Assembly: GCA_023247055.1 (NCBI GenBank)
Contig: JAHFHF010000010.1
Location: forward strand, 1 to 54,682
Reading direction: 5' to 3'
DNA length: 54,682 nucleotides
DNA from: Candidatus Omnitrophota bacterium
Lineage (GTDB): Bacteria; Omnitrophota; Omnitrophia; Omnitrophales; Aquincolibacteriaceae
The notes below the pieces were generated by a model. The model saw nothing but the letters and a program-made list of their open reading frames with translations. It ran no database searches and was not told the DNA's origin. A program made the translations under genes and the position numbers. Positions 3,441-54,682 of the stretch are shown piece after piece (positions within the stretch are counted from its first letter, which is position 1; the number at the start of each line of letters is the position of its first letter).

Positions 3441-3444
3441 CAAA

Positions 3445-4563: not shown

Positions 4564-4573
4564 AAAGGATTGT

Positions 4574-7226: not shown

Positions 7227-7939
7227 AAACGGTTTTGAAAAAGCACCCGGATGGCAATAAAAAAATCCCGCGCTTTGATTTTTTTGCCTTCGCTGGCCGT
7301 CCGGCCGGCATACCCGATCGGACGCTCGACGATCCGCACGCCCTTTTTGACCAGCTTGCAGGTGATTTCCGGTTCAAAATCAAAACGCTGCGTACTCAGT
7401 TCAATGCCACTGAGCGCATCGCGGCGGATCAATTTATAGCAAGTTTCCATATCCGTCAGACGGCAGCCAAAAAGCAAATTCGTCAGGACCGTTAAAAAGC
7501 GATTGGCGACCATATTGGGCAGGGCCATGCCCTTGGGCCAAAAACGGCCGTAAAACCGGCTGCCAAAGACAACTTGCGCGCCATCCCGGAGCATGGGCGC
7601 AAGCAGAGCCGGAATATCGGAGGGTTCGTATTCAAAATCCGCATCCTGGATGATGATCGCATCCCCGGTGGCGCTTTGCATGCCGCGCCGGATGGAATAG
7701 CCTTTGCCCCGGTTGACCTCATTGCGCAGAATCACAACCGGATGCTGCGGCAGGCGCTCATTGAGCAGCTGCGCAATTTTAAAGGTGCGGTCTTCGCTGT
7801 GGTCGTCCACGAGGATGATTTCAAATTCAACCGGGAAAGCCGTGGCGAGGACTTTTTCAACGACTTTCCTGATCGTCTTGGCCTCATTGTAGGCCGGAAT
7901 GATGATAGAAAGTTTTTTGATGCCGTTGACGCTGCTCAC
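7208..7939 (-). CDS. GT2 glycosyltransferase (polyprenol-phosphate glycosyltransferase-like)
   Basis: SIIIPAYNE, VDDHSED, NRGKG, QDADFEY, DMETCYK. Confidence 0.9.
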   Translation of the reverse strand: MSSVNGIKKLSIIIPAYNEAKTIRKVVEKVLATAFPVEFEIILVDDHSEDRTFKIAQLLNERLPQHPVVILRNEVNRGKGYSIRRGMQSATGDAIIIQDADFEYEPSDIPALLAPMLRDGAQVVFGSRFYGRFWPKGMALPNMVANRFLTVLTNLLFGCRLTDMETCYKLIRRDALSGIELSTQRFDFEPEITCKLVKKGVRIVERPIGYAGRTASEGKKIKARDFFIAIRVLFQNRFCQKTA

Positions 7940-9114
7940 ATGTACTTCCGCAGGATTTCCATGGCTTTGAGGACTTGGCGGTCGGGGCCGCCCTCCGGAT
8001 TTTCAATCACAAAGTCCGGCATGAGCCCGACCTGATCAATCATGCGACCCAGCGGACTTTTGTAACGAGCGGTAGTCATTTTCATGGCAGAGTCTTCATC
8101 CAGCGGTACGAGCGATTGCACGGAGGCCTTGCCAAAAGTCTTGGTGCCCACGAGCACCGCACGTTTATGGTCCTGCATGGCCGCCGAAAAAACCTCCGAC
8201 GCGCTGGCCGATCTTCCGTTGACCAGAATCACGAGTTTAAGATCCGCATACCCATGCTCCCCCTCCGAAATGTAATCTTTCTGCTGTTCCTTCAGCTTAC
8301 TGGAAACAGAGACAATCGTTTGGCCCTCTTCAAGAAAACTTTGCGCCAAAGCAACGGCCATGGGCAGCAGGCCCCCATCGTTGTTTCGCAAATCGATAAT
8401 CAGCGCTCTCATGCCTTGAGCGCGCAATTTTTCAACAGCCGCGCTGACCTGATCCACAGTTTTTTCCTGCCACGCTTGCAGCCAGAGATAACCGGTTTTT
8501 TTGCCGATCATGCGCACATCTTTGACGGCTTCGATTTCAATCATTTGGCGCACGACCTCAATGTCAAAAACCTGTTCGGCCCGCCGGATCGTCAGTACGA
8601 GCGACGTGCCTGCTTCGCCGCGCAGCTGCGGCGCAACCTCCGTCAGCGGCAGCCCCTCGGTCGTCACCTGATTGATCCGGATGATTTTATCGCCAGGCAC
8701 CAAACCGGCTTTCTCAGCCGCGCTTCCGGGCCGCACGCCGCGGATGAGCGGAAAATTGTCGACAATTTCCAGCATGGCCCCGATCCCCGCATATTCGCCT
8801 TTAAGTTGGATCTGCAGAAGTTTAAACCGCTCCGGCTCGATAAATTCCGTATAACGGTCGCCGAGGCCGGCCAGCATGCCTTTGACGGCGTTATACAGAA
8901 GCTGGCGGGGCGTCACGTCATTGACAAACGCCTGTTCGACCGCGCCGATGGCCTTTGAAAAAAGTTTCAACTCCGCCAAAATCCCCTCATCCGGCAGGCC
9001 CTGCGCCGCCGCGGCCGGCGAAACCGGCTGTGGGGCCGCGCCCGCTAAAACCAGCATTCCTGCTGCGACGCACCCCATCACTCCAATCCCATAGCCCCGC
9101 TTGAACTGACGCAT
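7936..9114 (-). CDS. ctpA: C-terminal processing peptidase, S41 family, with PDZ domain
   Basis: YAGIG PDZ entry, IDLRNNDGG, SASASE, TFGKASVQ; start taken at MRQFKRG. Confidence 0.88.
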   Translation of the reverse strand: MRQFKRGYGIGVMGCVAAGMLVLAGAAPQPVSPAAAAQGLPDEGILAELKLFSKAIGAVEQAFVNDVTPRQLLYNAVKGMLAGLGDRYTEFIEPERFKLLQIQLKGEYAGIGAMLEIVDNFPLIRGVRPGSAAEKAGLVPGDKIIRINQVTTEGLPLTEVAPQLRGEAGTSLVLTIRRAEQVFDIEVVRQMIEIEAVKDVRMIGKKTGYLWLQAWQEKTVDQVSAAVEKLRAQGMRALIIDLRNNDGGLLPMAVALAQSFLEEGQTIVSVSSKLKEQQKDYISEGEHGYADLKLVILVNGRSASASEVFSAAMQDHKRAVLVGTKTFGKASVQSLVPLDEDSAMKMTTARYKSPLGRMIDQVGLMPDFVIENPEGGPDRQVLKAMEILRKYM

Positions 9115-9125
9115 GCCTGTCTCCT

Positions 9126-10157
9126 TTACGCTTTTTGCGTGTAAAATTCTTTCCAAAATTGAATGCCGTCATTCCGGCCGGCGACAGCCTGCACGCTGAG
9201 TGTTTCAGCGCGGCCCTTCAGCGATGCAGCGCTTTGAATCCGGAAATACTTTGAGTCGATTTTAAAAATTCCCTGAGTCTGAACTTGATCGATGATCTGC
9301 CGGATTTCGTCATCCAGCCCGCTCAAGGACTCGAAAGCTTCCGCCAGGCCCGCAAGTTTGGTAAAAACAGGGTCATCCGCGGTTCCCTCAAGGCGGTCCG
9401 GACCCTGCCGGTAGCTGATTATTTTTTCTGCAAAGGTTTTATGCCCCGTGAGCGCCTCAAGCACGGTCTGCGATGCTGTATTTAAATTCACCTTTCCGTC
9501 GCCATGCAGCGTAATGTAAGGCTGAAGATTTTTTAAAATTTCCGGGGTCATATCCCGCACATAAAGCAATTCTTCGACAACATCGAGCGCGGCATTTTTA
9601 GGCAGCAACGGCCGTTTCAAGGAACGGTAATAAAGGTTTTCTGCACCAGAAGCATGTAAATCACTGTCTTCGTCGATCCAGTCCAAAACCGAGTCGGCAA
9701 GGATGGCGGCTTGGTCGGTTGAAATTCCGGCGGTCATTATTAAAAGGCGCTTAAGCACCTCGTCATCCTTCAGAAGATTCAGATTGATCCGGCTTTCTTC
9801 GTCGCGCAAACCATAATCCGAAACTGTCTCCGTCTTGATCACGGAAAAAACCGTCTTTCCCAGCGAAACGTCTTTGAATAAAAAACCCGGCCGGCTCCAG
9901 ACGTCCGTCAAAGAATCTGCGGGATTTTTGGGGTCCTTCGGATAATGGATCGCCCATAAGCCGCGCTCGATGCCGGACTCGGCGCTCAGACGCAGCGTCC
10001 TCTTGATTTCAAGGCGTTCCAGCATATTAAGCCGCTGGCGGACTCCATAGCCTGCGGAAAGCGTAAAAAGGCCCAAAAGCGCAGAAAGCCACAGTACGTA
10101 GATAAGAATGCTTCCGCTTTGCGGCAGGAAAAAAGATTTTTTTTTGCGAACGCTCAT
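9126..10157 (-). CDS. gspK: Type II secretion pseudopilin GspK-like protein
   Basis: Prepilin-like QSGSILIYVLW, DEESRINLN, DWIDED, EELLYV, KVNLNTAS. Confidence 0.85.
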   Translation of the reverse strand: MSVRKKKSFFLPQSGSILIYVLWLSALLGLFTLSAGYGVRQRLNMLERLEIKRTLRLSAESGIERGLWAIHYPKDPKNPADSLTDVWSRPGFLFKDVSLGKTVFSVIKTETVSDYGLRDEESRINLNLLKDDEVLKRLLIMTAGISTDQAAILADSVLDWIDEDSDLHASGAENLYYRSLKRPLLPKNAALDVVEELLYVRDMTPEILKNLQPYITLHGDGKVNLNTASQTVLEALTGHKTFAEKIISYRQGPDRLEGTADDPVFTKLAGLAEAFESLSGLDDEIRQIIDQVQTQGIFKIDSKYFRIQSAASLKGRAETLSVQAVAGRNDGIQFWKEFYTQKA

Positions 10158-31988: not shown

Positions 31989-33155
31989 ATGCTCCCCGCG
32001 CTTTTAATTTTATTTTCCGCCGGCATTGGACTATGGCTTTTTCGCAGCCGCGTGGCCCTTGAAACCCTGTATGGCGTACCCTCCGTCCCGCTTTTAAACC
32101 CGTCGCCCGCCGAACCCAGCAGCGTCACCGTCGTGATACCCGCGCGCAACGAGGAAAAGAACCTGCCGCAATGCCTGCGTTCGCTGGAAGTCCAACTTGA
32201 TTCGCAAACGCAGTGCCTCGTGATCAATGACCGCTCCACGGATGCGACCGAAATGATTTTACAGCGCGCCGGCTTTAGCGAAATCGCCGGCAAGCCGAAT
32301 CTGAGTTTCAAACGCTACGTCCATGTCCGGCAAAACCCGCCGGAAGGCTGGACGGGGAAAAATCATGCTCTGACTTGCGCCGTACCCTACCTGTCCGGCG
32401 GCTGGCTGCTTTTTACAGACGCGGACACGCTGCATCAGTCTTCCGGGATCCGCTCAGCCATCGTGCATGCAGAAAAAAACGGGCTGGATTTACTGACGCT
32501 GACGCCGCGTTGTTTGACCGGCTCATTCATTGAACGCCTGGTCCAACCCACGGCCATGGCCATGATGGGGCTGTGGTTTCCGCTGACGCGTGTCAATGAC
32601 CCTCAAAAACCAGACCATTTTGCCAACGGCCAGTACCTGCTTATCCGGCGGGATCTTTACGAAACTCTGGGCACGCACGCCGCGGTGGCACATGAATTCC
32701 TGGAAGATTTCGCGCTCATGAAAAAAGCAAAGCAGACGGGAGCGCGCACCGCCTGCCATTGGGGACAAGAAATTTACGGCACGCGCATGTATCACAATTT
32801 ACGAGAGCTCTGGCGCGGCTGGCGCCGCATTTACCGCCATGCCTTGGATTGTTCCGTACCTCTCATTCTGGTCCGGCTGGCAGGACTGCTGACGGCATCT
32901 GTGCTTCCGGCCATCGGCCTGGCATGGCTCTTCGTACATGCCGCACCTGAAAATCCACTCTGGAAGCCTGCTGTTTTCCTGGGAAGCCTCTGCATGATTC
33001 TGATCACCGGCGTGACGGTCAAAACTTACCGCACGCTGCAAACCCCCTGGGCCTACGCATTTCTCCATCCCGTGGCGGCTCTCATTGTGGCAGGTATTCT
33101 GGTCGATGCGCTGCGCATCTCTCTTTTGAATCTGAAGACGCGATGGCGTGAATGA
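31989..33155 (+). CDS. Membrane GT2 glycosyltransferase (CrtQ/HpnB-like)
   Basis: VIPARNEE, GWTGKNHA, FTDADT, NGQYLL, LEDF; N- and C-terminal TM helices. Confidence 0.85.
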   Translation: MLPALLILFSAGIGLWLFRSRVALETLYGVPSVPLLNPSPAEPSSVTVVIPARNEEKNLPQCLRSLEVQLDSQTQCLVINDRSTDATEMILQRAGFSEIAGKPNLSFKRYVHVRQNPPEGWTGKNHALTCAVPYLSGGWLLFTDADTLHQSSGIRSAIVHAEKNGLDLLTLTPRCLTGSFIERLVQPTAMAMMGLWFPLTRVNDPQKPDHFANGQYLLIRRDLYETLGTHAAVAHEFLEDFALMKKAKQTGARTACHWGQEIYGTRMYHNLRELWRGWRRIYRHALDCSVPLILVRLAGLLTASVLPAIGLAWLFVHAAPENPLWKPAVFLGSLCMILITGVTVKTYRTLQTPWAYAFLHPVAALIVAGILVDALRISLLNLKTRWRE

Positions 33156-39944: not shown

Positions 39945-40244
39945 TTAGGAATTGGAAGAAAGGAGGTTTTGCGAGTCAAAGCCGGTCTGGTGTACTTCGG
40001 GTTCTTCGTCATCAGCGCCCTGCTTCCAGTAGCCGGCTGAACCCGCCAGGCGGATGCAGCCCTGAAGCAGGGCAAGAAGCAGAATTAAAAACAACATACT
40101 CGATTTAGGCTTGAGTTTTTTTGACTCAAGCACAACGCTTCGCAGGCCAAGGAAGCCTGCGTATGCGCTAGGCTTGAGTTTTTTTGACTCAAGCACAACG
40201 CTTCGCAGGCCAAGGAAGCCTGCGTATGCGTTAGATTTTTCCAT
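39945..40244 (-). CDS. Small lipoprotein carrying a 2 x 21-aa repeat-derived insertion
   Basis: MLFLILLLALLQG-C lipobox; ATG 40244 overlaps the lnt end; alternative start at 40097. Confidence 0.65.
   Translation of the reverse strand: MEKSNAYAGFLGLRSVVLESKKLKPSAYAGFLGLRSVVLESKKLKPKSSMLFLILLLALLQGCIRLAGSAGYWKQGADDEEPEVHQTGFDSQNLLSSNS
40106..40234. repeat. 63-bp-period double-hairpin tandem repeat, 2 copies, TAG at each junction
   Basis: 40106-40167 = 40169-40230; stems gcttgagt/actcaagc and cgcaggc/gcctgcg. Confidence 0.95.
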
Positions 40245-41805
40245 ATTTTTCGCGCCCGTACTTTAGCCAGAGCATCAGACCCAAATTGGCCATCACCAAC
40301 AGCACCACGACCGGAAACATATACCCGCTGCGCATATAATGGGTCGGTCCGCGCTTCAACGTTATAAACCCTGTACCCTGTCCGGTCACGAAAAGATCCT
40401 CACTCTTTTGAGACCTGATTCGCTGGGTCACTCGGCCGCGGGCAGAGATCAGCGCCGAAACGCCGGTATTGGCTGTGCGCACGACCGGAACTCCGGTTTC
40501 AACGGCGCGGAAAATCGATGCCGCCAGATGCTGGTAAGGCGCGGCCGTGCGTCCAAACCACGAATCATTGGTGATGACCACCAAAAAGCGCGCCCCGCTT
40601 TCAACAAACCGCCGTGCAATATGCGGGAAAATGTCTTCAAAACAGATCATCACGCCAAAGGGCACATCATCATACAGCCGGAAAAGCTTGAAGGTTTGTC
40701 CCGCGCTGAAGTCCCCCACGCCAAAGGCATCCGCCAGCGGCATCAGCCAGCCCAGAGCAAATTTAAAAGGCACATATTCCCCAAACGGAACCAGCCGCAT
40801 TTTATCATAGCGCTCTTCCGCGGCTTCAGGGCCGCGCACGAGATAGGCGCTGTTGTAATAAACGCCGTCTTTTTCATAATGCGGACTGCCGATCAGGATA
40901 GGCGCGTGGATTTTTTGCGCTAACTCGCGCACCTGGGCGGCTTCGGCATCACGATTGAAATAGCCGGGAAAAGACGCCTCAGGCCAGACCACCAGATCCG
41001 GCGAATCAAACGACGCCAGCTGGGTCAGCTTCATTTGGACTTCGAGAATGCGGTCTTTGGCTTCCGGACGCCATTTAATGGCTTCGGGAATGTTGCTCTG
41101 CACCAGCGCCATGCGCAGCTGCTCACCGCCGTTTTCCGGACGGCTAAGCTGGTAGAAACCATGCGCCGCAATTAAGCCCACGATCAGAGGAACGCCTCCG
41201 GCGATGAAAAACAGGCGGATTTTCCCCTGGGGCTCCGCGGCCCGCACACGCATTTCCCAGGCATTGACCCCGCAGGCATTGACTGCCGCAATCGCAAAAC
41301 CCAGTCCGTAAACGCCGACGGTATTCGCGGATTGTAAGATGACCGGATAAAAACTCTGCGAATAAGCCAGCAGATGCCAGCCGAATCCCAGCACCGGAAT
41401 CTCCGTGCGCAGCCATTCCACAAGCGTCCAGCTGCCTGCCATCCAAATAATGCTATAGAGGCCGGGCGTAAAACGCCGTCCCCAGTAGATCAGGAGCGCA
41501 AAAAATCCAATAAACAAGGCTTCAAATAAAACGGCAAAAACGCAAGCGGGAAAAGCGACGTGGCGCAGCCAATATAAACCGGGTAAAAAAAAGACGAGGC
41601 CGCAGACATAGCCAAGGCGGAAAGCTTTTGCAGCATGCGGAGCCTGCCGGGCAGCCTGTAAAATAAAAAAAAGCGCTCCCCAAGCCAGAAATCCAAAACG
41701 GAAGTTAGGCTGACAAAAATAAAGCAAGAGACCGCTGGCTGCGGCCCACGCAAACGTCACTGGCCGGTCCCGCAGCACTTTTTGTGTTTTTTGCCGCTGC
41801 CGCAC
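40231..41805 (-). CDS. lnt: Apolipoprotein N-acyltransferase
   Basis: N-terminal TMs, [28 protein letters not shown]; start uncertain. Confidence 0.95.
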
Positions 41806-44414
41806 GGGCAGGGATCATTGCGGCCGACTTTGGCATGCTCGCGTTTGATTGGCGCGGGCGCGCTTTCGTCAGTGCGCACGGACGGCTGTTCGTGGTGCGG
41901 CCCGGCCAAAGGATCGGGCGCCGGAAAACTGGCCAATCCGCCGGCGGCAGGATGATGAAACTCATGCGGCGTGGTTTCCATGACGCTTTTCATTTTTTCT
42001 TCCCGCACGACCTGCACGGCAAAAATTAATTCCACAACTTCTTCCTTGACGCTGGCGACCATGGCTTCAAAAAGCATAAAAGCCTCCCGCTTATATTCTA
42101 CCAGCGGGTCTTTTTGCGCATAGGCGCGCAGTCCGATGCCTTCCTTCAGGTTGTCGAGCGCGTAAAGATGGTCTTTCCATTTTCCGTCAATGACCTGCAG
42201 CAAAATATAACTGCACAGGTAAGTCATCCGGGCCTGCGTAAATTCGTTCTCTTTACGCTCATAAGTCGCTTTGAGTTTGCCCAGAATGGCATCGCGCAGC
42301 GGTTCGACAAAATCGGTGTTCTCTTTGACCTCCACGTTAAAATCCAAACCAAACTTGGCGCTCAGGGCCCGCGCCAAACCGTCGGGATTTTTGCGGTCTT
42401 CGTCAAAATCCGGATGCATATACACGGAAAGAAGCTCCTCAACCACATCTTCCGTCATTTCCCAGACATGTTCGCGGATACTCTCGCCTTTTAAGACGCG
42501 GTCGCGCTCGGCATAAATCAATTCGCGCTGACGGTTCATCACGTCGTCATATTCCAGCAGGTGTTTGCGGATTTCGAAGTTGCGGCTTTCCACGCGTTTT
42601 TGTGCGGTTTCAATGGCCTTGGTCACGAATGGATGCTGGATCTCTTCGCCGTCTTCCATGCCCAGTTTCTGCATGACGCCCGAGATGCGGTCAGAACCAA
42701 AAATACGCATCAGATCGTCTTCTAGCGAAAGAAAAAATTTGGATTGGCCCGGATCGCCCTGACGGCCGCAGCGGCCGCGCAGCTGGTTATCAATGCGCCG
42801 CGATTCGTGACGCTCGGTGCCGACCACATACAAGCCGCCTTTTTGTGCCACGTTTTCGCCCAGCAAAATATCGGTTCCGCGGCCGGCCATATTGGTCGCA
42901 ATCGTAATCGCCGTGTCTTGACCGGCGCGCGCAATAATCTCAGCTTCCTGTTCATGGTACTTGGCATTCAAAACCGCATGCGGCAAATTTTTAGTCCGCA
43001 GCATTTTGCTCAAGCGCTCTGACTTTTCAATCGAGATCGTACCGACCAACACGGGACGCCCGGTTTGATGTTCCTGGATGATTTCTTTGACCACGGCTTC
43101 GAATTTTTCACGTTCCGTGCGGAAGACACCGTCGGCCAGGTCTTTGCGCACACAAGGGCGATTGGGCGGGATAATCACCACATCAAGTTTATAAATTTTA
43201 TGGAATTCAAGGGCCTCCGTGGCCGCGGTGCCGGTCATGCCCGCCAGCTTTTTGTACATGCGGAAATAATTCTGGAAGGTAATCGTCGCCAGCGTTTGGT
43301 TCTCACGGCGAATTTCAACTTTCTCCTTGGCTTCAAGAGCCTGGTGCAGGCCGTCGGAAAAACGCCGGCCCGGCATCAGACGGCCGGTAAATTCATCCAC
43401 AATAATAATCTCGCCGTCTTTGATGACATAATCCACGTCGAGCTGAAAAAACTCCTTGGCGCGCAGGGCCGTCGTCAGCTGATGCCGCTCATCGATCGTG
43501 CCGGCCTCGTGCAGATTCTCGACCCCCATCAACTTGGCGCCGCCCGCTTCGCCGCGTTCCGTCAGGGAAATGGTCTTGGATTTTTCATCTACGAGGTAGT
43601 CAAACTCCAGCTTCTTCTTTTCGATTTCATTTTTCCAGGTCACATTGGTCTTGTCTTCGATCATGCGGTAGCCTTCCAAACGCACTGCGGCTTTGCGTGC
43701 ACGGAAGTATTTCTCGGTTGAATCTTCCGCGGGGCCGGAAATAATGAGCGGCGTACGGGCTTCGTCGACTAAGATCGAGTCAACTTCGTCAACAATCGCG
43801 TAGTTGAGGGGCCGCTGCACGCGCTGCTCCAGACTGGAAACCATGTTGTCGCGCAAGTAATCAAAACCGAATTCGTTGTTCGTTCCGAACGTAATGTCGC
43901 AGCGGTAGGCCGCATTGCGCGCCTCATGCTCCATATCATGCTGAATCACGCCTACGGTCAGACCCAGCTTTTCATAGATCGGACCCATCCACTCCCGGTC
44001 GCGGCGGGCCAGATAGTCGTTGACGGTCACCACATGGACGCCCTTGCCTTCCAGGGCATTGAGATAAACCGGCAGGGTTCCGACCAGGGTTTTTCCTTCT
44101 CCCGTAGACATTTCGGAAATTTTCCCCTGATGCAGCACCATGCCGCCCAAAAGCTGGACGTCAAAATGCCGCATGCCCGTCGTGCGCCGTGACGTTTCGC
44201 GAACCACGGCGAAAGCTTCGGGCAAAATACGGTCCAGAGTTTCTCCGCCCGCAAGACGGCGGCGGAATTCCGGCGTTTTTTGGCTGAGTTCGTCATCTGT
44301 CAGTTTTTGCAGGGCCGGCTCCATGGCGTTGATCGACTGGACCACCGGCCAAAGTTTTTTGAGTGTGCGGGAGTTCTGGCTTCCAAAAATTTTCTTAAGC
44401 ATCAGCTGAATCAT
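41757..44414 (-). CDS. secA: Preprotein translocase SecA
   Basis: [36 protein letters not shown]-terminal [13 protein letters not shown]. Confidence 0.99.
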
Positions 44415-44417
44415 GGG

Positions 44418-45531
44418 TTATTTCTTCCTGGCAGCGGCCATTTTTAAATAAGCTTTCATAAAATCATCCAGTTCGCCGTCCATGACGGCCTGAACATTCG
44501 AAGTCTCGACGTCGGTGCGCAGGTCCTTGACCATCGAATAGGGATGAAAAACGTAAGAACGGATCTGCGAACCCCACGAAATCTCTTTCTTCTCGCCGTA
44601 ACGTGCAAGGTTTTCCATTTCCTGCTCACGCCGAATTTTCTCATAAATACGGGCCTTCAGAATTTTCATGGCCACCTGCCGGTTCTGAAACTGCGAGCGT
44701 TCATTCTGGCATTGGGCGATCACGCCGGTGGGGATATGCAAAATACGCACCGCGCTTTCGGTTTTATTGACATGCTGCCCGCCCGCCCCCCCGGCCCGGT
44801 AGGTATCAATCTTAAGGTCTGTTTCCTTGATTTCAATGTCGGGAATGTCCTCGACTTCAGGAATGACGTCGACCGAAGCAAACGACGTGTGCCGCCGTTT
44901 ATTGGAATCAAAAGGCGAAATGCGCACCAGACGGTGTACCCCGCATTCGGTCTTCAGGTACCCGAAAGCATAAGGCCCTTTGACCATCATCATCATATTC
45001 TTGACCCCGGCCTCTTCGCCGGAAAGCCAATCGACCAGTTCGACCGTATAACCGTTTTGTTCCGCCCAGCGCACGTACATGCGGTAGAGCATGGACGCCC
45101 AATCACAGGACTCCGTGCCGCCCGCTCCGGCATTAATACTTAAAATCGCGTTCTTGGCATCCAATGGATCGGAGAGCAGGCGCTGAAACTCCAGCGTTTC
45201 GACTTCGCGCCCCAACTTGGCCGTCTCAGTTTCTAATTCACGAAAAGACTCCTGTTGGTTTTCATCCACCATTCCCAGAAGTTCTTCCAAGTCTTGTACC
45301 GATTGATAACTGCGAAACCAGGGCTCAATCATTTTTTTCAGGAGTTTGAGGCGGTCGACCGTTTCCTGGGCTTCCTGCGGCCGGTCCCAAAAACCCGGCT
45401 GGGCCATTTTCGCGTTCAGCGCCTCGATTTCTTTTTGGCGGGTATCAACGTCAAAGATACCCCCGTATCTCGAGCAGCTTGTCCTTGAGTTCGCCCAGAC
45501 GGCGCTTGAGGTTCTCGATCTCCGATTTCAT
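44418..45531 (-). CDS. prfB: Peptide chain release factor 2, +1 programmed frameshift
   Basis: ATG 45531 opens a 26-codon first frame ending GGG TAT CTT TGA C; the +1 frame joins ORF 45407-44418 with SPF and GGQ motifs. Confidence 0.97.
45450..45464 (-). promoter_or_regulatory. prfB frameshift site (internal SD-like GGGGG + CTT TGA C)
   Basis: Minus strand reads ggggg tat ctt tga c. Confidence 0.95.
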
Positions 45532-45868: not shown

Positions 45869-48800
45869 TTAGGCGGCGGCTTGAACGCGGGCTTGTTTTG
45901 CGGCTTCTTGCGCAAGCAGATGTGTGAGCATTTCGAAGTCTCGCAGGGTTTGTTCATCGGCAATCTGGATCATGTAATCGCTGTTTTTAATCAGGCCGCG
46001 AACTGTTTTTTCAGACAAAGCCGCTAGGCCGGCAAGCAAAAGCTGGGCTGGCGAAGCCTCCGGCGATGCCGTGATTTTTTGCCGGTTGGCGTATTCCGCG
46101 CCATCCAGCGACACACGGGTCTTTCGCAGACGAAGAGATTCGGCTGGGCGCGAACTAATCGCTAAATCGGCCGGACCTTGGAGATTTAAATCGGCCGCCA
46201 TTTCTCTAGCATCCATAATCCGGATGCGCCCCTGGGATCTCAGCATACGCACCTTTGTTGGATCACCGCGGCTTAAAAGTTTCATCATTTCTCCTTTGAC
46301 ACTACGATCGGGCGCAGCAATCCGGATGCTAAGATTTGGATTCAGCAGCGCGGCATTCATGGCAGCATCCACTAACCCCTGGTACAGCGCTTGACGGTCT
46401 TCGCGGCTGTTCCATTCGGCAGTCAACTCATAATCCATCATCACTTTTTCCTTCATGGATAAGATCACCGCAAGCAGGTCTTGAGCATGCGAGAAATCTG
46501 CCTTCGCATCGCCTACGGCTTGACCAGGGAGCCCGATTCCCTCTTTCGTGGGAATATCCGCCGCATTTAAAATTTGTGCCAAACGATCCCCAAAATGGTT
46601 CAAGGCTCGTTCTGATTCCGCGCTGCGAAGCACGCCATACGCTGAGAATGTGTCTCCAAAGACGGCCAGCGGTTTAGACTGATTTTCCTTTGGCAGCGCC
46701 AGCATCGCTTCCACCCATGCATCCGTCCGGCTTAAAGCTTGCGCACGCCGCGCATCGATATTTTCAAATACCTGGGCTGCAATCGCATGGCTAATCTCCT
46801 GCACGGCAGTTCGGGCCTGCCGAATCACTGTCAGGTTATGCGCAATCATTTGAGCCTGCGGCTCCTGTTGCTCCAATTGATCCGCAATCAAGCGCACTTC
46901 CGACCGCATGCTTGCCAAAGTTGCGGTCCAAATGTTTCCGGCATCAGTCCCTGAAGTCATCCGCCGATCCCCTTCGCTAGCCTCACTGCGCTGCGCGTCC
47001 AATTGCTCACTCTGACTTAAGGCTTCCATTTGCTCGCCATAGCGGCCCAGACGATCCAATAATTGCTCGGTGGAATTGGCGGCCATGAAGATATCCGCTA
47101 ACGCTTCGGATTTTCCACGGTTTAAATCCAAAAGTTTTTTAATGACCGCTTCCGAGCCCCATTCGCGCGTTTTCTCCGGCCCAACACCGGCATTGAATGC
47201 AAACATCCGCACCAGCCGCTTTGCTATTTTTTCGCGGGTAGTCGCCGCTTGAAGTAAGGAACTTCCCGACCCATCTTTTATTTTAAAAAAAACATCGCAC
47301 AACCCATTCTGAAGCAGCCCTCTTCTTGCAGCCTGTTCAGAAACATCCAACTCCGTTTCGAAAAGATCCGCCAGCATTTTTACCAGCGCCCGAATTTCAA
47401 AGTTAGAAACCTGTTGTTGGGTTATCGGTTCCGTCTGGAGTTTCCCCAATAATTCATCCATGATCTGAACCGACCACGCGTGATAATAGCGTTTTAAATC
47501 GGCCTCGACCTCCGTAACATTCCGGGTCTTGCCCACGACAAGAATCTGCTTAATCGCATCAAACCTGGCCCGGTCAAGCCGGCTTTTCTTATGGTCGCGC
47601 ATACCGTAAAGCCGGCTCAACGTCGCTTCAAGACTTGATTGATTTCCATACCCTTCATATCGCAAAACCTCGACGGCCAAAGCAGAACCAAAAGATTGGA
47701 TGGCTAACCGGCCGGCCCCCGCCGCTTCATCGACCGCGTCCGGAATAGGAAGTAAGGCCAAGACCTGAGTCAGGGCCCGTTCGCGGGAATTACTCGTATC
47801 CATATGCCGGAACAATTCACGCACGACATAACCCAACTCCTGCATGGCCCAGCTGGCATGCACGTCATCGCCTTGAATTTTCGAAAGCTCCGCCAAAACG
47901 GCATTGAGTAATTGCTTCTGCATCTCAACATCCTTAAGAAATTGCACGATCAAAAACAGGCTGGCTCCCAACGACCTTCTTAACCCATTGATCTCGTGAG
48001 AACTGCCCTCCGTCACTGAAAAAACAGCCGTAAAAAGTTTTGCCACCTTAGCCGTGCGCTCAGGATCTTTCAAGGCATAAAGGACATTTCGCAATTCAAG
48101 ACTCAACATTTCTAAAGCGTGTTTTGCTTCGGAGAGAGGCTCTTGAATTTCGCCAAACTCGTCCATAAAAAAATCTGCAACCAGCCTCTGCATGTCTCGG
48201 TCACGAATTTCTTCAACCTGTTTGGATATTTTATTCCTGAAATCAATCCGTTCTGAATTTATACCGCTAAACTCTTTTTGCATTTCACGGCCTCGCTCAA
48301 CCATGGCACGAATTCTTGTTTTTAACTCCGTCAGTTTTGCGGGATGACGCCGGTAGTCCAATTGCCTAAGGCCATACTCCACGATCTGGGTAATTCTTTC
48401 ACTGTGCTGCCACCGGCCTAAAACAGCGTTCATCCAGGCTTCTACCGCATTAAGCTGAGATAATGGGACACTCCAAATGATTTCCGCTAAAGCTTCCTCC
48501 GTCTTCCAATAGGGCTCTAATCCCTGATAAATGTCATTTTGATTAATCTTTTTTGCAGATTCCAAAACCCGATCTAACTGTGCTCGCAACGAACTCCGAA
48601 CCTCGGAACGTACGCTTGCCGAAGTCGCGGTCCAAATGTTTCCGGCATCAGTTCCTGGAGCCAGCCGCCGATCCCCTTCGCTCGCCTTACTGCGCTCCGC
48701 GTCCAATTGAGCACTCTGACTTAAGGCTTCCATTTGCTCGCCATAGCGGTCCAAGCGATCCAGCAACTCGGGCTCGGAACGGGAAGCCATAAAAATGTCC

Positions 48801-51800
48801 GCCAACACACCTGCTTCCCCAGTTTTTAAAGCCAAAAGTTTTTTGACAACAGCCGATTTTTCTTGATGCAGATTCATATCCGAAAGTTCCAAGTTTGCTT
48901 GGAGCGCAAAAATTTTGGCCAAATGCATCATGATTTTTCCGCGGAAATCGCTTAAGGCTTGATCTTGCCATAGAATTTCGCACAGAACGCGCTGAAATAA
49001 ATCGGCTCTTGGTTTCCGCTCCGAATCCCTCAACTCGTTTAAAAGACCAACAAGCCTTGAAGTCAGCAGAGAAATCTCATAAGCTAACTCTGCACCTTTT
49101 TTCACTTCATCGTTTTGCAGTTTTAGCAGCAATTCATCCACAATTTGAACCGCCCAATCGTGGTAATAATTCCTTAACTTCAAGTCGGTTTCCGTAAATG
49201 CCTGTCCTTTGCCGGGGATTAAAATCATTCGCCGGATCTCATTGAATCTTGCCTGATCCAGCCGGCTTTTCTTTTGATCATGCATGCGGAACAGCCGAAC
49301 CAAAGTTCCTTCAAGGGGCGATTGCGTTCCATACCCTTCGATTTTTAATAATCCGAAGGCTAAAGCCTGGCTCATGGACTGAATGGCCGGCCAACCGGCT
49401 CCGGAGGCGAGGCCTTTAGCATTGGGAAGGGAAAGCGCTGTCAGGAGCGTCGCTAGCGCCGGCTCGATCGCAATGCTAGAGTCCATAACGCGGAACAAAT
49501 TGAGCAAAACAAAACCCAACTCCTGCATGGCCCAACTGTCTTCCATTGTCGCCATTGTCGCGCCCTGAATTTTTGAAAGTTCCGTCCAAGTACCCTCAAG
49601 CACTTGTTTTTGCACCTCCCCATCCTTGAGAAGGAGCACCATCCCTTTCAAACTGTTCGCTAATGATCGCCGGAGGTTGTTCATTTCTCTCGAAGGACCG
49701 GAGGTTTTTTCAAAAATACGCATAAAAATTCTCGCAGCCTGAGCGCTGCGTTCCGGGTCTTTTAAAACCACAAGCAGGTCGCGCAAGGCAAACCCAAACA
49801 TCACTTGAACGTGCTGTGTTTCAGGCGATGGCTGTAAAATCTTGTCAAATTCAGAAATCAAAGTATCCGCGGTGAGTTTTAGCAGTTCAGAATCGCCGCT
49901 TTGCCGAGCCAAGTCGGATGCTTTATCGCTTAGTTGCGCACGTCTTTGATTAATGCTTTCCGAGTCACCCTCTAATTGACGTAATTCAGCGAGTGTTTCC
50001 TGTAGTTCTAGCGGAACCCGCACTTCGGAACGCGCCGCGGCATTTTGACCAACCGCCCAAATGTCGCTGCGATCCGTGTCTGCTGGGGATTTTTTAGGCG
50101 CCGCAGGCTCCGAAGCTCTGCGGGCGTCCGCCTCCGCTTGTTGAATGGCGGCAAGCTTTGCCAACTCCAAACTTTCGATTTTGGCGAGCATCCAATTCTC
50201 ACCGTGCTCTTTTCCGGCCCGCAAGACATCATTCTGAATGATCACGATATCTTCGGCGGTTATTAAACTCCGCCCATCATACATGGCAAGAAAGTCGGAC
50301 AAAGCCTGTTTCACTTGGGTTTTTAGGGTATAGCCTTCCGTGTACAACAAAATCAGAGCTAAATAAGAAGCGATCACCGCTGTTAAATGGGAAGCCATGA
50401 TACCGCCCTCGACTCGCTGCAAAATCTGAACAAAATCCGGAATCAAGGCGGAGAGCGTTCGCGGTCCCACCCTCGTTATAGTTTCGCCCAGCGAATCGGC
50501 AATAATCCATTTTTTATAATTTGTACTATCATCCGCACCATTCATTTCGGCTAATACCCCTACAAGACGGTGGACGATTTTAGGAAGCGCCGCGCGATCA
50601 AATCTTTTTAATGTCTTCGCAAGCTTAATATTTATTCCGATTGAACCCTGGTGGCTGGCTTGCTGCAAATGGACGAGCAGCTTTTCAATGAGTCTTGTCA
50701 AAAAAGCCGGATGACGGCTTAAATTTGAAAAAATGCCCACAACACCACAGAGCACGAACATGATTCCGGGGTAAGGAGACGTCAAAAATAAATGGAACAC
50801 CCCCAAGATTGCAACGCCGCCAGACAAAGCTGTTAAAATCGTACGTTGCCTCTCAGAAATAACGGCTAAAGTTTTCAACATAGTTTTTCGGATTTCGGAG
50901 CGTGACGCAGCATTAGCCTGCGGAAATGACGGGTTATATGTTTGTGGAAGTAATGCGGCGGACGTCACGGTCCAAATATCCGTAGCCTCGGCCTCCCGCA
51001 AAACTGATTTTTTGCCGTCGGAAACCTGACTCGCCAGGTTTTCCGCCTGTTCAGCCGCAGCAATTTTATTACGCTCAAAATTTTCGATTTTTGCGAGAGT
51101 CCATTCTTCATTCTCTTTTTTACCGGGCTGCAGGATCTCATTGCGAATCAATTCAATGTCCGCCGTTGTGATTAATTGATGTCCTTTGAAGTGTATCGAC
51201 AACGCAACATCGAGACTTCGATGGATGCGAGATTTTTTTAGCGCGTAGCCTTCCAAGCGTAACAATGTATTGGCCAGGGCTGATGACGTTGCAAAGAAAG
51301 CTTCGTCGGACTCAGACTCGTTGTCCGGAATCAGGCCCCAGCTTTTGATTAAAACTTGCAATAGTTGCGGCAGATAACTCACAGTGATTTCCCTGGCGAT
51401 TCTTTCCAATGCAAGCGCAATGCGCGTCCGCTCGCGCAATACGAGGACGTCCGAAGATTCCTTCACTTTGTCCAGCCAAGCCATCAATACCACGGCTAAT
51501 GGCGGTAAATTTTTATACCCTTTACCGACTGCGATATTAAACAGCCGGGCGGTGTCGATCCTGCAAAGATCGTCCGGATTCGGGCTAAGGAGCTCATTCC
51601 AGCGTTGAAGGATTCCCGTCACGTCCGTGAGCGAGCCTCTCGACGCCATGTCAATCAACACCTTCCGAATTGCAATTTGGGCGCTGCGTGCAAAAGCCGT
51701 ATCTCTTTGGTTTACTTCAGCCAGGGCGCTGAATAAGAGATCGAGCAGTCTTTGGTAGGATTCGGTATTGATGGTATTCCGATGGGGCGTATCTTTGAGC

Positions 51801-54682
51801 GCCCCAGCGATCTCCGACCGTGTCGAATCAGCCACATCATCGGACCCGGTTACTGCTTCCATGGCATTCATCAATTGATCCAGACTCATGCGAATATATT
51901 CATCGGTCCGCACTTCAGAACGCGCCGCCGCATTCAGGCCGGCAGACCAAAGGGAGTTGTCTGAGCCAGCCGCAGGTTTTTCAGGCGGTGCGGATTCAGA
52001 GGCGCGGTTGGCGTCGGCGGCAGCGCGCTTGGCCAGTGCGAACTTCTGATCATGAAAACTTTTAAGCTGCTGCACTACCCAATCTTCACCTTTGTCTTTT
52101 CCGGGCTGCAGGATGTCACTGCGGATCGTTGCAATGTCCTCCTCGGTGATTAAACTGCGGCCCTTATCATGCAGGATTAAAATGTAAATAAGTGCGCTTT
52201 TAACTTTTGCCAGATTGCTATAACCCTCGCTCCAAAGCAGCATACTTCTTAATGCCAGGTTGGTATGCCAGCGAAGCGAACCGTTCACCTTATCGACCCC
52301 CGAAATTTGCCCCAGAGTTCTGATCAATTCAGGAATAATTTCAGGAATGACGCTGGGATCAAGATGGGGCGCCATCTCTTCGAGCGCGCGCGCCATTTCA
52401 TAATGCACAGAATTCGTATCAAATTTAAATTCTTTGAGACGTTTTAAGTTTTTCGCCAAAGCCACAGCGATCTTAGAGACAAGCGGCGTATCAACCGCCT
52501 TCGCCGCCTGCCGCAAATTGTCGACGACCTTCCAAAGACGATTCCTGGAGTCTTCTCCAGATTCGCTAAATTTCTCAAGTTGAATGAGATATTTTTCCAC
52601 AAGGGTTTGCCGCGTTATCAACTCACTAAAATAAGCGTCTGGACCCATGAAAGCATTTGTCTGAATCCATAAATAGCCTAAGGCGCCAACGCCGGCAGTC
52701 GCAAGCGCCAATCCGAGACCGTTGGAATATAAAGAAACCAAGGGGCCCAGCGCCACAAGAGCGGCTGACAAAGCGACTAAAACAGATTTGCGGATTTCGG
52801 AACGAAGGACCGCCAGATTCCCGCCAAAAACATGCGGGAATGACAAGTCGGATGTTATGGTCCAGATGCTGTTGATATCGCCGCTTAAAGGCGCGGTGGG
52901 CGGCATGATTTGCTCGGTAGCGTCTGCGGCTTTTTGTTCGCTGGCGGCCAAAGCGATGAGCTGCTTGGCATAGGCCGCAAGTTTTTGTTCCGCGGCCGCC
53001 GCATCTCCATGGGCTGACTTCAAAATCTCGACGAACCGCTCAAAAATACCGTCATCGCGCGAAAAAATATCTTCATCCTGTGATAAATCCGCAAATATAC
53101 GTTCGAGCACGAGTGAAATGGGCGCTTCCCGAGACTGACTGCCCGGCGCATCAGTCACTTCTAAACCCGCTAAGCGGGTCGCTATCGTGGCCAAGACAGC
53201 CGCCGTCAACCGGGGGTTCACAAAACTATTCTCCGATTGCTTCAAGAGGGTCACAAGCGGCGGAATCATCTCGTCAAAATACCTAGAATCGATTCTTTTG
53301 GCGATCCGCTCCATAACCAACACCATTTCTTTTGCCGCCTCAGGGCTTTTTTCCCGGACGCCGCGCACTTTTTGCAAGCCAGCCAGCATGGCGCGCAGCA
53401 TGGCGGGCAATTCAGAGGCCAGCGTTTTCTCTGCCACAACCGCCAACAGGCGGGACAAGTGGATGCGCAGATCATCATTCTCATCCAGAATTCCGGTGAT
53501 TTCGCTAAACCATTGGATCAGCAGGTCATTTATTTTTTTAAGATCAGAGGGCTCTATCTTTGCAATCATCGTACGCAAGACATTCACAATACCACTGAGG
53601 TGTTCTAAAAGTCGTTTTAGATCGGGCCGGTCGGCATGCTTAAGTTCCTCAAGTGTCGCTGTAAGGGCCGCGAGTACCTGCTTCAAATTTTCAGTGTTAA
53701 CTGCAGGGTCTTCGAGCTTGATAACCCAAGACAATCCTTTCAGGATATAAGACCGCGCGGATTCCCCTTCCGCTGTGCCGCCTTTAATCTCCTGCAACTG
53801 GACGGCGTAAGCTCGAGCAAGACGATTCGAATCAATGCCTGAAATGTTTCGGCTGTCGGCCATTTGGATTATATTCGTTAAAACTCCGGCAATAGCCGCC
53901 CGCGCTTCATTCGTGGCATCGCTAGAACCCTCGAGCTGTTCAAACGCGGCTAGTACAGTGTCAAAAACGAGCGGAGTGTCCCGCTGATGGTGGGGCCATG
54001 TCATACGGAATGTATTTTTAAGCGCGCCGGTTATCACCTGCCGCGCATAATTAGCCTCATCCGAAGATCCTTGGATTCGCTCCAGGGCATGGATGAGCGC
54101 ATTCTTAGTTCGGCTCAGGCGAAGGAGCAGTACCGCGGGTACCCAACCGTCCAGAACCATCCCAGCGAAAATTCCTTGAAGCAAGTTCGCATAAGTCCAG
54201 CGCTGAATATTCGCAGCATCGTCCGTGCCTTTCTCTAACTCTAATTTCGCAATTGCTTCGGCTGCCACGAGTTCCACGGCCGCCTGATCCGTTTCGTGTT
54301 TGAGTGCCGCGCTTATAACGCGAATCATGGCCCAGCGCGCCCAGTGCGTCCCTTCACTGACTTTTAACTGGGCCAGTCCGTTGAGAAAAATAGAATAAAA
54401 TGTTTTGGAAACACTCAAAGATTTATCATTAATGCGGCTTTCAAAAATCCTGGCAATGTCAGTCTTAGCTTCCAGGGTGTTACGATCTGCACCTTTGAGT
54501 GATTGGAATTCATCCAGCAGTTGCTGCGCATTCATGGCAGAATAGTTTTTCAGCATGCGTACTTCAGAGCGCTGGGTTGTGGTCCAAATGCCGGTGGTAT
54601 CGCCAGGCAAGTCGGGTTTGGGGGTGCCCTCGCCATTGGCTTTTTGTTCATCCATCCTAGAGGCTTGGTAGGCCGTTTCCAT
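45869..54682 (-). CDS. Giant modular alpha-helical repeat protein with seven RSE[VI]R linkers, probably 5'-truncated by the window
   Basis: Open frame of at least 2937 aa reaching the window edge; its first 42 aa resemble the tails of later modules; internal paralogous modules; no recognisable catalytic motif. Confidence 0.9.
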   Translation of the reverse strand: METAYQASRMDEQKANGEGTPKPDLPGDTTGIWTTTQRSEVRMLKNYSAMNAQQLLDEFQSLKGADRNTLEAKTDIARIFESRINDKSLSVSKTFYSIFLNGLAQLKVSEGTHWARWAMIRVISAALKHETDQAAVELVAAEAIAKLELEKGTDDAANIQRWTYANLLQGIFAGMVLDGWVPAVLLLRLSRTKNALIHALERIQGSSDEANYARQVITGALKNTFRMTWPHHQRDTPLVFDTVLAAFEQLEGSSDATNEARAAIAGVLTNIIQMADSRNISGIDSNRLARAYAVQLQEIKGGTAEGESARSYILKGLSWVIKLEDPAVNTENLKQVLAALTATLEELKHADRPDLKRLLEHLSGIVNVLRTMIAKIEPSDLKKINDLLIQWFSEITGILDENDDLRIHLSRLLAVVAEKTLASELPAMLRAMLAGLQKVRGVREKSPEAAKEMVLVMERIAKRIDSRYFDEMIPPLVTLLKQSENSFVNPRLTAAVLATIATRLAGLEVTDAPGSQSREAPISLVLERIFADLSQDEDIFSRDDGIFERFVEILKSAHGDAAAAEQKLAAYAKQLIALAASEQKAADATEQIMPPTAPLSGDINSIWTITSDLSFPHVFGGNLAVLRSEIRKSVLVALSAALVALGPLVSLYSNGLGLALATAGVGALGYLWIQTNAFMGPDAYFSELITRQTLVEKYLIQLEKFSESGEDSRNRLWKVVDNLRQAAKAVDTPLVSKIAVALAKNLKRLKEFKFDTNSVHYEMARALEEMAPHLDPSVIPEIIPELIRTLGQISGVDKVNGSLRWHTNLALRSMLLWSEGYSNLAKVKSALIYILILHDKGRSLITEEDIATIRSDILQPGKDKGEDWVVQQLKSFHDQKFALAKRAAADANRASESAPPEKPAAGSDNSLWSAGLNAAARSEVRTDEYIRMSLDQLMNAMEAVTGSDDVADSTRSEIAGALKDTPHRNTINTESYQRLLDLLFSALAEVNQRDTAFARSAQIAIRKVLIDMASRGSLTDVTGILQRWNELLSPNPDDLCRIDTARLFNIAVGKGYKNLPPLAVVLMAWLDKVKESSDVLVLRERTRIALALERIAREITVSYLPQLLQVLIKSWGLIPDNESESDEAFFATSSALANTLLRLEGYALKKSRIHRSLDVALSIHFKGHQLITTADIELIRNEILQPGKKENEEWTLAKIENFERNKIAAAEQAENLASQVSDGKKSVLREAEATDIWTVTSAALLPQTYNPSFPQANAASRSEIRKTMLKTLAVISERQRTILTALSGGVAILGVFHLFLTSPYPGIMFVLCGVVGIFSNLSRHPAFLTRLIEKLLVHLQQASHQGSIGINIKLAKTLKRFDRAALPKIVHRLVGVLAEMNGADDSTNYKKWIIADSLGETITRVGPRTLSALIPDFVQILQRVEGGIMASHLTAVIASYLALILLYTEGYTLKTQVKQALSDFLAMYDGRSLITAEDIVIIQNDVLRAGKEHGENWMLAKIESLELAKLAAIQQAEADARRASEPAAPKKSPADTDRSDIWAVGQNAAARSEVRVPLELQETLAELRQLEGDSESINQRRAQLSDKASDLARQSGDSELLKLTADTLISEFDKILQPSPETQHVQVMFGFALRDLLVVLKDPERSAQAARIFMRIFEKTSGPSREMNNLRRSLANSLKGMVLLLKDGEVQKQVLEGTWTELSKIQGATMATMEDSWAMQELGFVLLNLFRVMDSSIAIEPALATLLTALSLPNAKGLASGAGWPAIQSMSQALAFGLLKIEGYGTQSPLEGTLVRLFRMHDQKKSRLDQARFNEIRRMILIPGKGQAFTETDLKLRNYYHDWAVQIVDELLLKLQNDEVKKGAELAYEISLLTSRLVGLLNELRDSERKPRADLFQRVLCEILWQDQALSDFRGKIMMHLAKIFALQANLELSDMNLHQEKSAVVKKLLALKTGEAGVLADIFMASRSEPELLDRLDRYGEQMEALSQSAQLDAERSKASEGDRRLAPGTDAGNIWTATSASVRSEVRSSLRAQLDRVLESAKKINQNDIYQGLEPYWKTEEALAEIIWSVPLSQLNAVEAWMNAVLGRWQHSERITQIVEYGLRQLDYRRHPAKLTELKTRIRAMVERGREMQKEFSGINSERIDFRNKISKQVEEIRDRDMQRLVADFFMDEFGEIQEPLSEAKHALEMLSLELRNVLYALKDPERTAKVAKLFTAVFSVTEGSSHEINGLRRSLGASLFLIVQFLKDVEMQKQLLNAVLAELSKIQGDDVHASWAMQELGYVVRELFRHMDTSNSRERALTQVLALLPIPDAVDEAAGAGRLAIQSFGSALAVEVLRYEGYGNQSSLEATLSRLYGMRDHKKSRLDRARFDAIKQILVVGKTRNVTEVEADLKRYYHAWSVQIMDELLGKLQTEPITQQQVSNFEIRALVKMLADLFETELDVSEQAARRGLLQNGLCDVFFKIKDGSGSSLLQAATTREKIAKRLVRMFAFNAGVGPEKTREWGSEAVIKKLLDLNRGKSEALADIFMAANSTEQLLDRLGRYGEQMEALSQSEQLDAQRSEASEGDRRMTSGTDAGNIWTATLASMRSEVRLIADQLEQQEPQAQMIAHNLTVIRQARTAVQEISHAIAAQVFENIDARRAQALSRTDAWVEAMLALPKENQSKPLAVFGDTFSAYGVLRSAESERALNHFGDRLAQILNAADIPTKEGIGLPGQAVGDAKADFSHAQDLLAVILSMKEKVMMDYELTAEWNSREDRQALYQGLVDAAMNAALLNPNLSIRIAAPDRSVKGEMMKLLSRGDPTKVRMLRSQGRIRIMDAREMAADLNLQGPADLAISSRPAESLRLRKTRVSLDGAEYANRQKITASPEASPAQLLLAGLAALSEKTVRGLIKNSDYMIQIADEQTLRDFEMLTHLLAQEAAKQARVQAAA

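Follow-up and report, generated by a model that had tools for sequence, protein, structure and literature searches.

The window analysed here is the whole of a 54,682-nucleotide stretch of DNA (forward strand of contig JAHFHF010000010.1, assembly GCA_023247055.1, Candidatus Omnitrophota bacterium), and its last part is occupied, on the minus strand, by the 3' part of a giant open reading frame (ORF), hereafter P0001. In the 2937 amino acids (aa) of P0001 that lie in the window, the pentapeptide RSE[VI]R stands at aa 38, 627, 921, 1261, 1551, 2025 and 2593, that is seven times where the protein's own composition leads to an expectation of 0.02 sites. The original prediction, made from the letters of the sequence, had listed these seven sites and proposed that they divide one giant translation product into separate effector-like proteins, as sites of protease cleavage or of secretion/chaperone recognition. 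Every amino acid position and nucleotide coordinate was recovered unchanged, and the observation itself is real and much larger than first noted. The best matches of SecA (69% and 68% identity) were metagenome-assembled genomes of Candidatus Omnitrophota, in agreement with the phylum that had been suggested. The features of P0001 in the window are the following.

45869..54682, minus strand: 3' part of the giant ORF, 2937 codons and a stop; the ORF continues past the window to the contig end
54557..54571, minus strand: RSEVR site, window aa 38 (aa 1828 of the joined ORF), preceded by GIW
52790..52804, minus strand: RSEIR site, aa 627, followed by K and a transmembrane hairpin
52643..52789, minus strand: predicted hydrophobic hairpin (two transmembrane-like segments by a hydropathy heuristic only), first part of module m5, directly after RSEIR
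51098..52612, minus strand: 505-aa stretch modelled with AlphaFold2, two helical-repeat modules and a linker ending in the motif
51908..51922, minus strand: RSEVR site, aa 921, at the end of the sole internal low-confidence stretch of the AlphaFold model
50888..50902, minus strand: RSEIR site, aa 1261, followed by K and a transmembrane hairpin
50693..50887, minus strand: predicted hydrophobic hairpin, first part of module m7
50018..50032, minus strand: RSEVR site, aa 1551
48596..48610, minus strand: RSEVR site, aa 2025, separating modules m8 and m9 (47% identical)
46892..46906, minus strand: RSEVR site, aa 2593, the last junction
45872..46891, minus strand: 340-aa C-terminal domain of unknown function, homologous to the C-termini of giant ORFs of two other genomes (G022 and G006)

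The ORF could be extended upstream, as had been suggested. The contig (C50) extends to position 60067, and beyond a gap of 10 N the same strand remains open over a further 1791 aa, to the contig end, with three further [IL]W..RSEMR junctions. The scaffold gap (C50 54683-54692; window end 54680-54682) is false: it is bridged by contigs of two public DNA runs, both from a groundwater metagenome of one study, which omit 13 letters of the reference (a duplicated CAT and the 10 N), so that the frame is continuous (..RGRM joined to ETAYQ..). The public runs listed for the stretch were DNA runs, with no RNA run among them. The joined ORF, truncated at its 5' end by the contig end, comprises at least 4727 aa, 10 sites and 11 modules of 285-584 aa. 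The site at aa 38 is internal and not close to an N-terminus, since the ORF continues upstream.

An [IL]W dipeptide precedes the motif by 4-23 residues at all 10 sites of the joined ORF (7 in the window and 3 upstream). This part of the proposed linker thus stands for P0001, but it characterizes one protein subfamily only, being found at 55 of 319 sites of the genome against a background of 9.9%. The sequence had also been said to diverge at once after each motif. The flanks are indeed free; the modules, however, are duplicated families that align end to end. Pairs aligning from start to end were m1 and m2 (24% identity), m5 and m7 (32%, over the whole length) and m8 and m9 (47%). As judged from these alignments, the modules of the window ORF are units of duplication.

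The modules, whose products had been proposed to be effector-like, appear to consist of HEAT/ARM-like helical solenoids, the two transmembrane hairpins and the C-terminal domain. With Foldseek, the model around site 921 matched best importins and designed ARM proteins (E about 1e-3, template-modelling scores of 0.2-0.3), which are generic ARM/HEAT solenoids. The Pfam scan of P0001 detected no HEAT or ARM match, though the model is an all-helical solenoid, and gave (E up to 1) just four sub-threshold matches to unrelated families; the N-terminus of the ORF is missing from it. The 340-aa C-terminal domain had no Pfam match, no usable Atlas match and no protease domain. It shares 33-35% identity with the C-termini of the giant ORFs of G022 and G006, the homology begins right after the motif, and all four copies, that of P0001 and its three homologues, terminate in -AA.

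Strictness and distribution of the motif

The genome of the window (G000; 3.26 Mb, 137 contigs, 92.75% complete) was scanned in six frames for ORFs of at least 100 aa. The relaxed motif RSE[VILM]R occurred 333 times, in 83 ORFs, and 319 of these sites were in ORFs of at least 1000 aa, where about 1.7 are expected. By ORF length, the counts were as follows.

ORFs of at least 2000 aa (n = 64): 284 sites, 1.39 expected
ORFs of 1000-1999 aa (n = 53): 35 sites, 0.33 expected
ORFs of 100-999 aa (n = 7547): 14 sites, 7.3 expected

Permuted, scrambled or one-off control patterns occurred 0-8 times, and a chance origin of the genome-wide count is excluded. RSEVR is the most frequent 5-mer in the giant ORFs. 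The motif was expected to recur in giant proteins without homology to P0001, and this was borne out: 71 of the 117 ORFs of at least 1000 aa carry it, including 52 of the 64 that reach 2000 aa. The median distance between sites is 412 aa.

Positions R1, S2, E3 and R5 are present in 319/319 sites of the ORFs of at least 1000 aa; the commonest one-off variants are K1 (10 cases) and A2 (16), and other variation is essentially nil. Position 4 is V in 184 sites, M in 87, I in 24 and L in 24. The residue ahead of the motif is A or S in 137 sites and never D, E, C or W, the residue after it is S, T, A or G in 174, and beyond these tendencies no flank position is conserved. A strict pentapeptide in free flanks, with preferences limited to -1 and +1, is the pattern of the subsite specificity of an enzyme and not that of a fold. 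In alignments of paralogues with a mean identity of about 45%, 110 of the 125 motifs align to a motif, and R, S, E and R reach a column identity of 0.90 where the flanks have 0.24-0.6.

The seven window sites are encoded by seven distinct 15-mers, from which selection on the peptide had been proposed. The genome-wide data agree: every Arg codon and every Ser codon (six each) is used, as are 14 codons at position 4, and third positions vary freely, so that selection acts on the peptide. The reading of position 4 as a start codon, with an associated Shine-Dalgarno signal, was ruled out, GTA, GTC, GTT and ATC being common there.

A survey of 300 genomes of the phylum was made with a DNA proxy pattern for RSE[VMI]R, and the counts were tallied from the result table.

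Genome of the window (G000): 243 proxy matches, 11 for the reversed control
Family of the window: at least 20 matches in 50 of 65 genomes
Other families of the same order: at least 20 matches in 6 of 30 genomes
Rest of the phylum: at least 20 matches in 0 of 204 genomes, with a maximum of 16

The motif is thus confined to one order of the Omnitrophota. In five relatives belonging to three families, 28 of 30 loci of 3 kb had the motif in the frame of an ORF that spans the locus without a stop, the flanks being unrelated. The giants themselves are highly divergent even within the genus: of those of G001, one had no match at 1e-20 and another 26-33% identity. With P0002 as the query, a representative library returned just 5 matches in 1.84 billion proteins.

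The preferred residue at position 4 differs between genomes. In G000, V exceeds M and A occurs essentially never, RSEAR being found 4 times against 3 for its control; in G022 it is found 59 times against 4. RSEMR accounts for 87 of 100 sites in G177 and for 8 of 50 in G186, in both cases among the matches listed (counted by hand). Other genomes use the form [RK][SA]ELR (G036) or a relaxed x-x-E-[LM]-R (G006). Such a genome-wise change across dozens of unrelated loci suggests one trans-acting reader that co-evolves with its sites.

Linkers, module ends and enzyme ends

The motif had been predicted to mark module boundaries in flexible linkers. A first model of 505 aa around window site 921 was built with AlphaFold2 from an alignment of 40 paralogous and orthologous junctions. 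Its mean predicted local distance difference test (pLDDT) score is 83.2 and its two helical-repeat modules reach about 90. The sole internal stretch below 50 comprises residues 211-235 and ends exactly with the motif, which forms its last five residues (231-235). A second, unrelated junction family (12 paralogues) has RSEVR, a spacer of variable length, a second RSEVR, and a conserved domain that starts one residue later. In its model, which is weak (mean pLDDT 50), both copies of the motif and the spacer fall within stretches below 50 (51-82 and 91-131), and a beta domain begins near residue 134, after the motifs. The original prediction would have failed if the motif were a buried structural part of the repeat domain or were absent from non-homologous giants, and neither is the case.

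Beside P0001, the giants that carry the motif are chains of unrelated enzymes.

C58 ORF: RtcA, guanylate kinase, an enzyme resembling pyruvate dehydrogenase (PDH) E1 or transketolase, a phosphoenolpyruvate (PEP)-utilising enzyme
C106 ORF: histidine-kinase ATPase, methyltransferase, M50 peptidase core
C35 ORF: SNF2 helicase
C103 and C20 ORFs: methyltransferases

In these chains the sites coincide with enzyme ends. The RtcA homology of the C58 ORF starts, from model position 4, on the residue after a variant site (RAEVR), a 942-aa module bounded by sites 5882 and 6829 runs colinear with an 886-aa PDH E1, and the histidine-kinase C-terminus of the C106 ORF ends about 10-15 aa ahead of site 279. 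Among recognised Pfam/NCBIfam domains of five giants, 0 of 10 are interrupted by a motif, while simple arithmetic gives about 5 expected interruptions. According to the models, the enzyme ends and the duplicated modules, the sites lie at the boundaries of independently folding or functional units, as cut sites would. A search of the PDB with the PEP-utiliser module and with the C17 giant gave no match, and Pfam/NCBIfam scans of the giants of C83, C73 and C17 found no domain.

Sites also occur in pairs. Consecutive sites enclose 34 spacers of at most 120 aa, many of which are low-complexity peptides of variable length whose coding sequences form very stable hairpins (one of 213 nt has a minimum free energy of -113 kcal/mol). 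In-frame palindromic repeats were found in giants such as those of C8, C99, C94, C113, C116, C1 and C87, with one arm reading GGRWKVEGG.. and the other ..STFHLPPSTS, around cores of the form LAMT..SLRGS..TEAEAIS. There are about 44 and 41 arms, often placed between two copies of the motif, and about 40% of them are next to a motif (16 of 44 5' arms, 18 of 41 3' arms). Target-site duplication by an inserted element was ruled out, as the paired copies share only 6-15 of 15 bases (0-9 differences).

Also, seven internal signals resembling those of twin-arginine translocation (Tat) have a motif ahead of them. Three of the seven, twin-arginine signals with hydrophobic cores in the giants of C17, C20 and C103, lie 19-27 aa after RSE[VM]R. 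One further Tat-like signal follows the variant MSEMR, and TatC is present in the genome, on C81.

A candidate processing site and its alternatives

The motif itself is a solid finding. The best explanation, in our view, is that RSE[VILM]R may be a processing site of bacterial polyproteins; we give this reading as a whole even chances, the cleavage, the position of the cut and the enzyme all being inferred. This reading is drawn from a strict site with subsite-like preferences, located in exposed linkers and at the ends of enzymes and duplication units, from the paired sites that flank disposable spacers, from the Tat-like signals that follow some sites and from the genome-wise co-evolution. 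A dedicated trans-acting, sequence-specific endopeptidase would recognise the pentapeptide and cut the giant multi-module translation products into separate proteins, most likely right after the second Arg, leaving small N-terminal residues (S, T, A or G). The window ORF would then yield about 10 products, among them HEAT/ARM-like solenoid modules of 285-584 aa, two released modules starting with Lys and a hydrophobic hairpin, and the conserved 340-aa C-terminal domain. The interpretation given in the original prediction is therefore partly supported. The candidate processing system is new and testable, and its mechanism could equally prove right or wrong.

Several observations weigh against cleavage by such an enzyme. 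Of the ORFs of at least 1000 aa, 46 of 117 are motif-free, including the largest (26,028 aa, on C32), and long stretches without the motif exist. Enzymes can also be fused without an intervening site, as RtcA and guanylate kinase are. Transmembrane or signal-like segments are not enriched after the motif (12 of 319 sites, 8.3 expected). Three giant ORFs stop 3-9 aa past a motif, which is odd for a pure cleavage site: their ends are RSEIRKSA on C106, RSELRIQQAA on C102 and RSEIRNNYVFQWSA on C100, each directly before the stop. Ser AGY codons make up 12% at the motif against 37% in the background, and AGR codons at Arg-1 4% against 16%, so shared descent (frozen ancestry) or a nucleotide-level preference may contribute. 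The searches for the enzyme point in the same direction. Peptidase_S8, CHAT, C14 and Asp_protease_2 were not found in G000 by peptidase family searches, C39 domains occur only in motif-free giants (the 26,028-aa ORF of C32 and a 2,993-aa ORF of C68), and no gene family recurs beside the giants, the largest having 3 members among 415 neighbouring ORFs. No homologue of P0008, the S1 protease of the window described below, was detected in G020, G022, G115, G105 and G005, all rich in the motif.

P0008 (4502-5341, plus strand) has a signal peptide and is the only Trypsin_2 match above the cut-off. The Asp of its DLYQGDSGSP segment stands at what we take to be the position equivalent to residue 189 of trypsin. 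Its homologues are present in 194 of 300 genomes across the phylum but in only 43 of 65 of the window's own family, and they were found in the motif-poor G013, G100 and G129; its distribution does not track the motif, and P0008 was ruled out as the reader. It belongs to a cluster of peptidase genes in the window (4502-9156), together with a reprolysin/M10-like HExxH and TPR protein (5289-7226, minus strand) and an S41 C-terminal processing peptidase (7936-9156, minus strand). The latter is housekeeping-like and the only S41 peptidase of G000. Peptidase_C80 (PF11713) also had no match in G000, an uninformative result since the control found none in 14 genomes either. Pfam found no protease domain inside P0001, and the only peptidase-like modules seen in motif-bearing giants are in the C106 ORF (aa 2820-3159 and 3395-3620): a motif-bounded small M50-type intramembrane metalloprotease core (HEFSH ... 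SDG), which scored 27.5 bits for a cut-off of 27.2 and lies inside one module, and a neighbouring module with a weak metallopeptidase signature (HELGH, of the HExxH type).

The strictness of the motif, its position in linkers and its genome-specific drift also fit a recognition motif that is never cut and that a trans factor binds or modifies on a giant that stays intact. The pentapeptide would then be a docking site for a chaperone, an assembly factor or a secretion factor, or a site of Ser modification, all of them roles that we regard as tentative. A binding tag suits the motifs found 3-9 aa from three natural C-termini better than a cut does, and it is also favoured by the protease searches, which turned up no reader. 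Such a motif, however, leaves unexplained why sites fall at the ends of homologues of whole enzymes, why pairs of sites surround junk spacers and why Tat-like signals follow some of them, and no partner gene recurs beside the giants. We consider an uncut motif rather unlikely, if by no means negligible. A signal acting during translation is improbable. Here, the nascent pentapeptide would pause or act on the ribosome, giving each module time to fold or insert ahead of the synthesis of the following one, or, in a bolder form, would cause release without a stop codon. Sites at module ends of extremely long ORFs would suit a pause, stable RNA hairpins adjoin many of them, and the Trp upstream of the motif in one subfamily recalls that some arrest peptides carry an upstream Trp. 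Yet this Trp is present at only 55 of the 319 sites and at a distance that varies from 4 to 23 residues, the upstream conservation that peptides acting in the tunnel need is lacking, and the genome-specific position 4 would demand co-evolution of the ribosome.

Some features could be read at the level of nucleotides, the motif being the trace of a former gene boundary, a joint of recombination or shuffling, or part of a mobile in-frame element, with no present function as a peptide. The codon-family bias at S2 and R1 is consistent with such a relic, as are the palindromic in-frame repeats that adjoin motifs (16/44 and 18/41 arms) and modules that are units of duplication. A relic would be expected to erode, but R, S, E and R keep 90% conservation at about 45% overall identity, and position 4 shifts coherently in each genome. 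Moreover, third positions are free, every synonymous codon family is present, paired copies share just 6-15 of 15 bases and the reversed pattern stays at background (11 against 243), and we judge this origin slightly more improbable still than a translational signal. Finally, the motif might play a structural part in a repeated domain, for instance by capping a helix or forming a salt-bridge pair, and have no signalling role: DSSP assigns a helix to residues 222-240 of the first model, and the modules of the window are homologous repeats. That helix has a pLDDT below 50, however, and the motif occurs in unrelated contexts (enzymes, beta domains, transmembrane segments, junk spacers) with no conserved flanks, which makes a purely structural role highly improbable.

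Among known systems, the MARTX multi-effector toxins are processed between their effector domains, at Leu-X junctions, by an internal cysteine protease domain. The Omnitrophota giants resemble them as very large bacterial proteins in which unrelated modules are joined by unstructured linkers with short candidate cut sites. They differ by a strict pentapeptide instead of a Leu-X junction and by the lack of RTX repeats in P0001 according to Pfam; also, a motif common to about 70 ORFs of one genome would imply one reader for many substrates. In viral polyproteins, the sites of the flavivirus NS2B-NS3 protease consist of basic residues followed by a small residue, and those of picornavirus 3C are another example. 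With these the motif shares a short strict site in free flanks, a location at protein boundaries, a small residue after a basic one and co-evolution of the site with its presumed protease, whereas here the genome is cellular and the window ORF has no embedded protease. Membership in MARTX or in viral-type polyproteins is not supported. In the precursor cassettes of ribosomally synthesised and post-translationally modified peptides (RiPPs) such as the cyanobactins, recognition sequences flank each core peptide, and the repetition of one short sequence on both sides of each unit is comparable; the units are nevertheless folded proteins of 300-1000 aa and not peptides, and no RiPP enzyme was identified. 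Unlike sortase or exosortase sorting signals, the sites are internal, and a transmembrane-like segment follows at 12 of 319, close to the 8.3 expected.

To our knowledge, a gene-expression strategy of this kind was previously known only from viruses. If cleavage is confirmed, the motif would represent a polyprotein strategy used across the genome of a cellular organism. It bears on the question of whether the Omnitrophota giants work whole or are divided into many proteins, and a strict clade-specific motif tells where to look for neo-termini. With Arg as the last residue of the site, a natural cut cannot be told apart from the digest in standard tryptic proteomics. The motif also provides a rule for dividing giants into units for structure prediction and annotation, and covariation of the position-4 preference with pocket residues of proteases is a handle for finding the reader.

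Giant genes of the Archaeovorin and Dockerin types have been described in Omnitrophota (doi: 10.1101/2023.11.21.568195), as have giants called multi-enzyme metabolic clusters (doi: 10.64898/2026.06.07.730766). The published giants are similar to ours in their phylum and in their ORFs of many thousands of aa tiling unrelated enzymes (methyltransferases, histidine-kinase ATPases, SecA-like and peptidase content). Unlike the Archaeovorin and Dockerin giants, P0001 has no Dockerin, TSP3 or C39 domain by Pfam, and C39, the proposed processing domain, is here restricted to motif-free giants. Cleavage of Omnitrophota giants has been suspected in print, and the earlier preprint describes as open whether they work whole or in pieces and states that the cleavage points are unknown (doi: 10.1101/2023.11.21.568195). 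In the passages covered and by term search, neither preprint names a site, and in the text of the later one the strings "motif" and "cleav" occur 0 times (doi: 10.64898/2026.06.07.730766). Full-text literature searches for the motif strings and for Omnitrophota polyproteins returned nothing relevant.

About 275,000 of the approximately 1,086,000 codons of coding capacity in G000 are in motif-bearing giants. These are almost free of cysteine: ORFs of at least 1000 aa with the motif contain 142 Cys in 274,568 aa (0.052%), compared with 1.17% for ORFs 300-599 aa long. Cys is entirely missing from twenty ORFs of at least 2000 aa, among them one of 8361 aa (C116) and one of 6843 aa (C106). Trp and Tyr are not depleted. 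A bolder and, in our opinion, doubtful extension is that about a quarter of the coding capacity in one Omnitrophota order would consist of cysteine-free polyproteins, cut at RSE-Phi-R by a single co-evolving protease into hundreds of proteins. In this view, the near-absence of Cys and the enzymes present (kinase, methyltransferases, RNA cyclase, SNF2 helicase) would make it conceivable that many of the products are exported, or reach prey or host cells as multi-effector "cluster bombs".

Neighbouring genes and other giant frames

Directly downstream of P0001 and on the same strand (window 40231-45407), the window encodes a class-I release factor with PCRF and RF-1 domains (probably prfB), secA and lnt. 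Elsewhere in the genome, the 26,028-aa ORF of C32 spans a whole contig of 78 kb and, besides its C39 peptidase domain, has six transmembrane-like segments. C92 carries a 3209-aa giant with 14.5% cysteine. On C61 of G000, a lone in-frame TAA (32133-32135) stands between ORFs of 5259 aa and 10,710 aa, inside an AAA-type ATPase domain (..MNPEKGVTI, stop, SGWRVGLSPALRSRF..), and the pair is suggestive of a single gene of about 15,970 codons in which the stop is a sequencing error, a pseudogene lesion or a site of read-through. Single-stop joints similar to that of C61 are present on C132 and C77.

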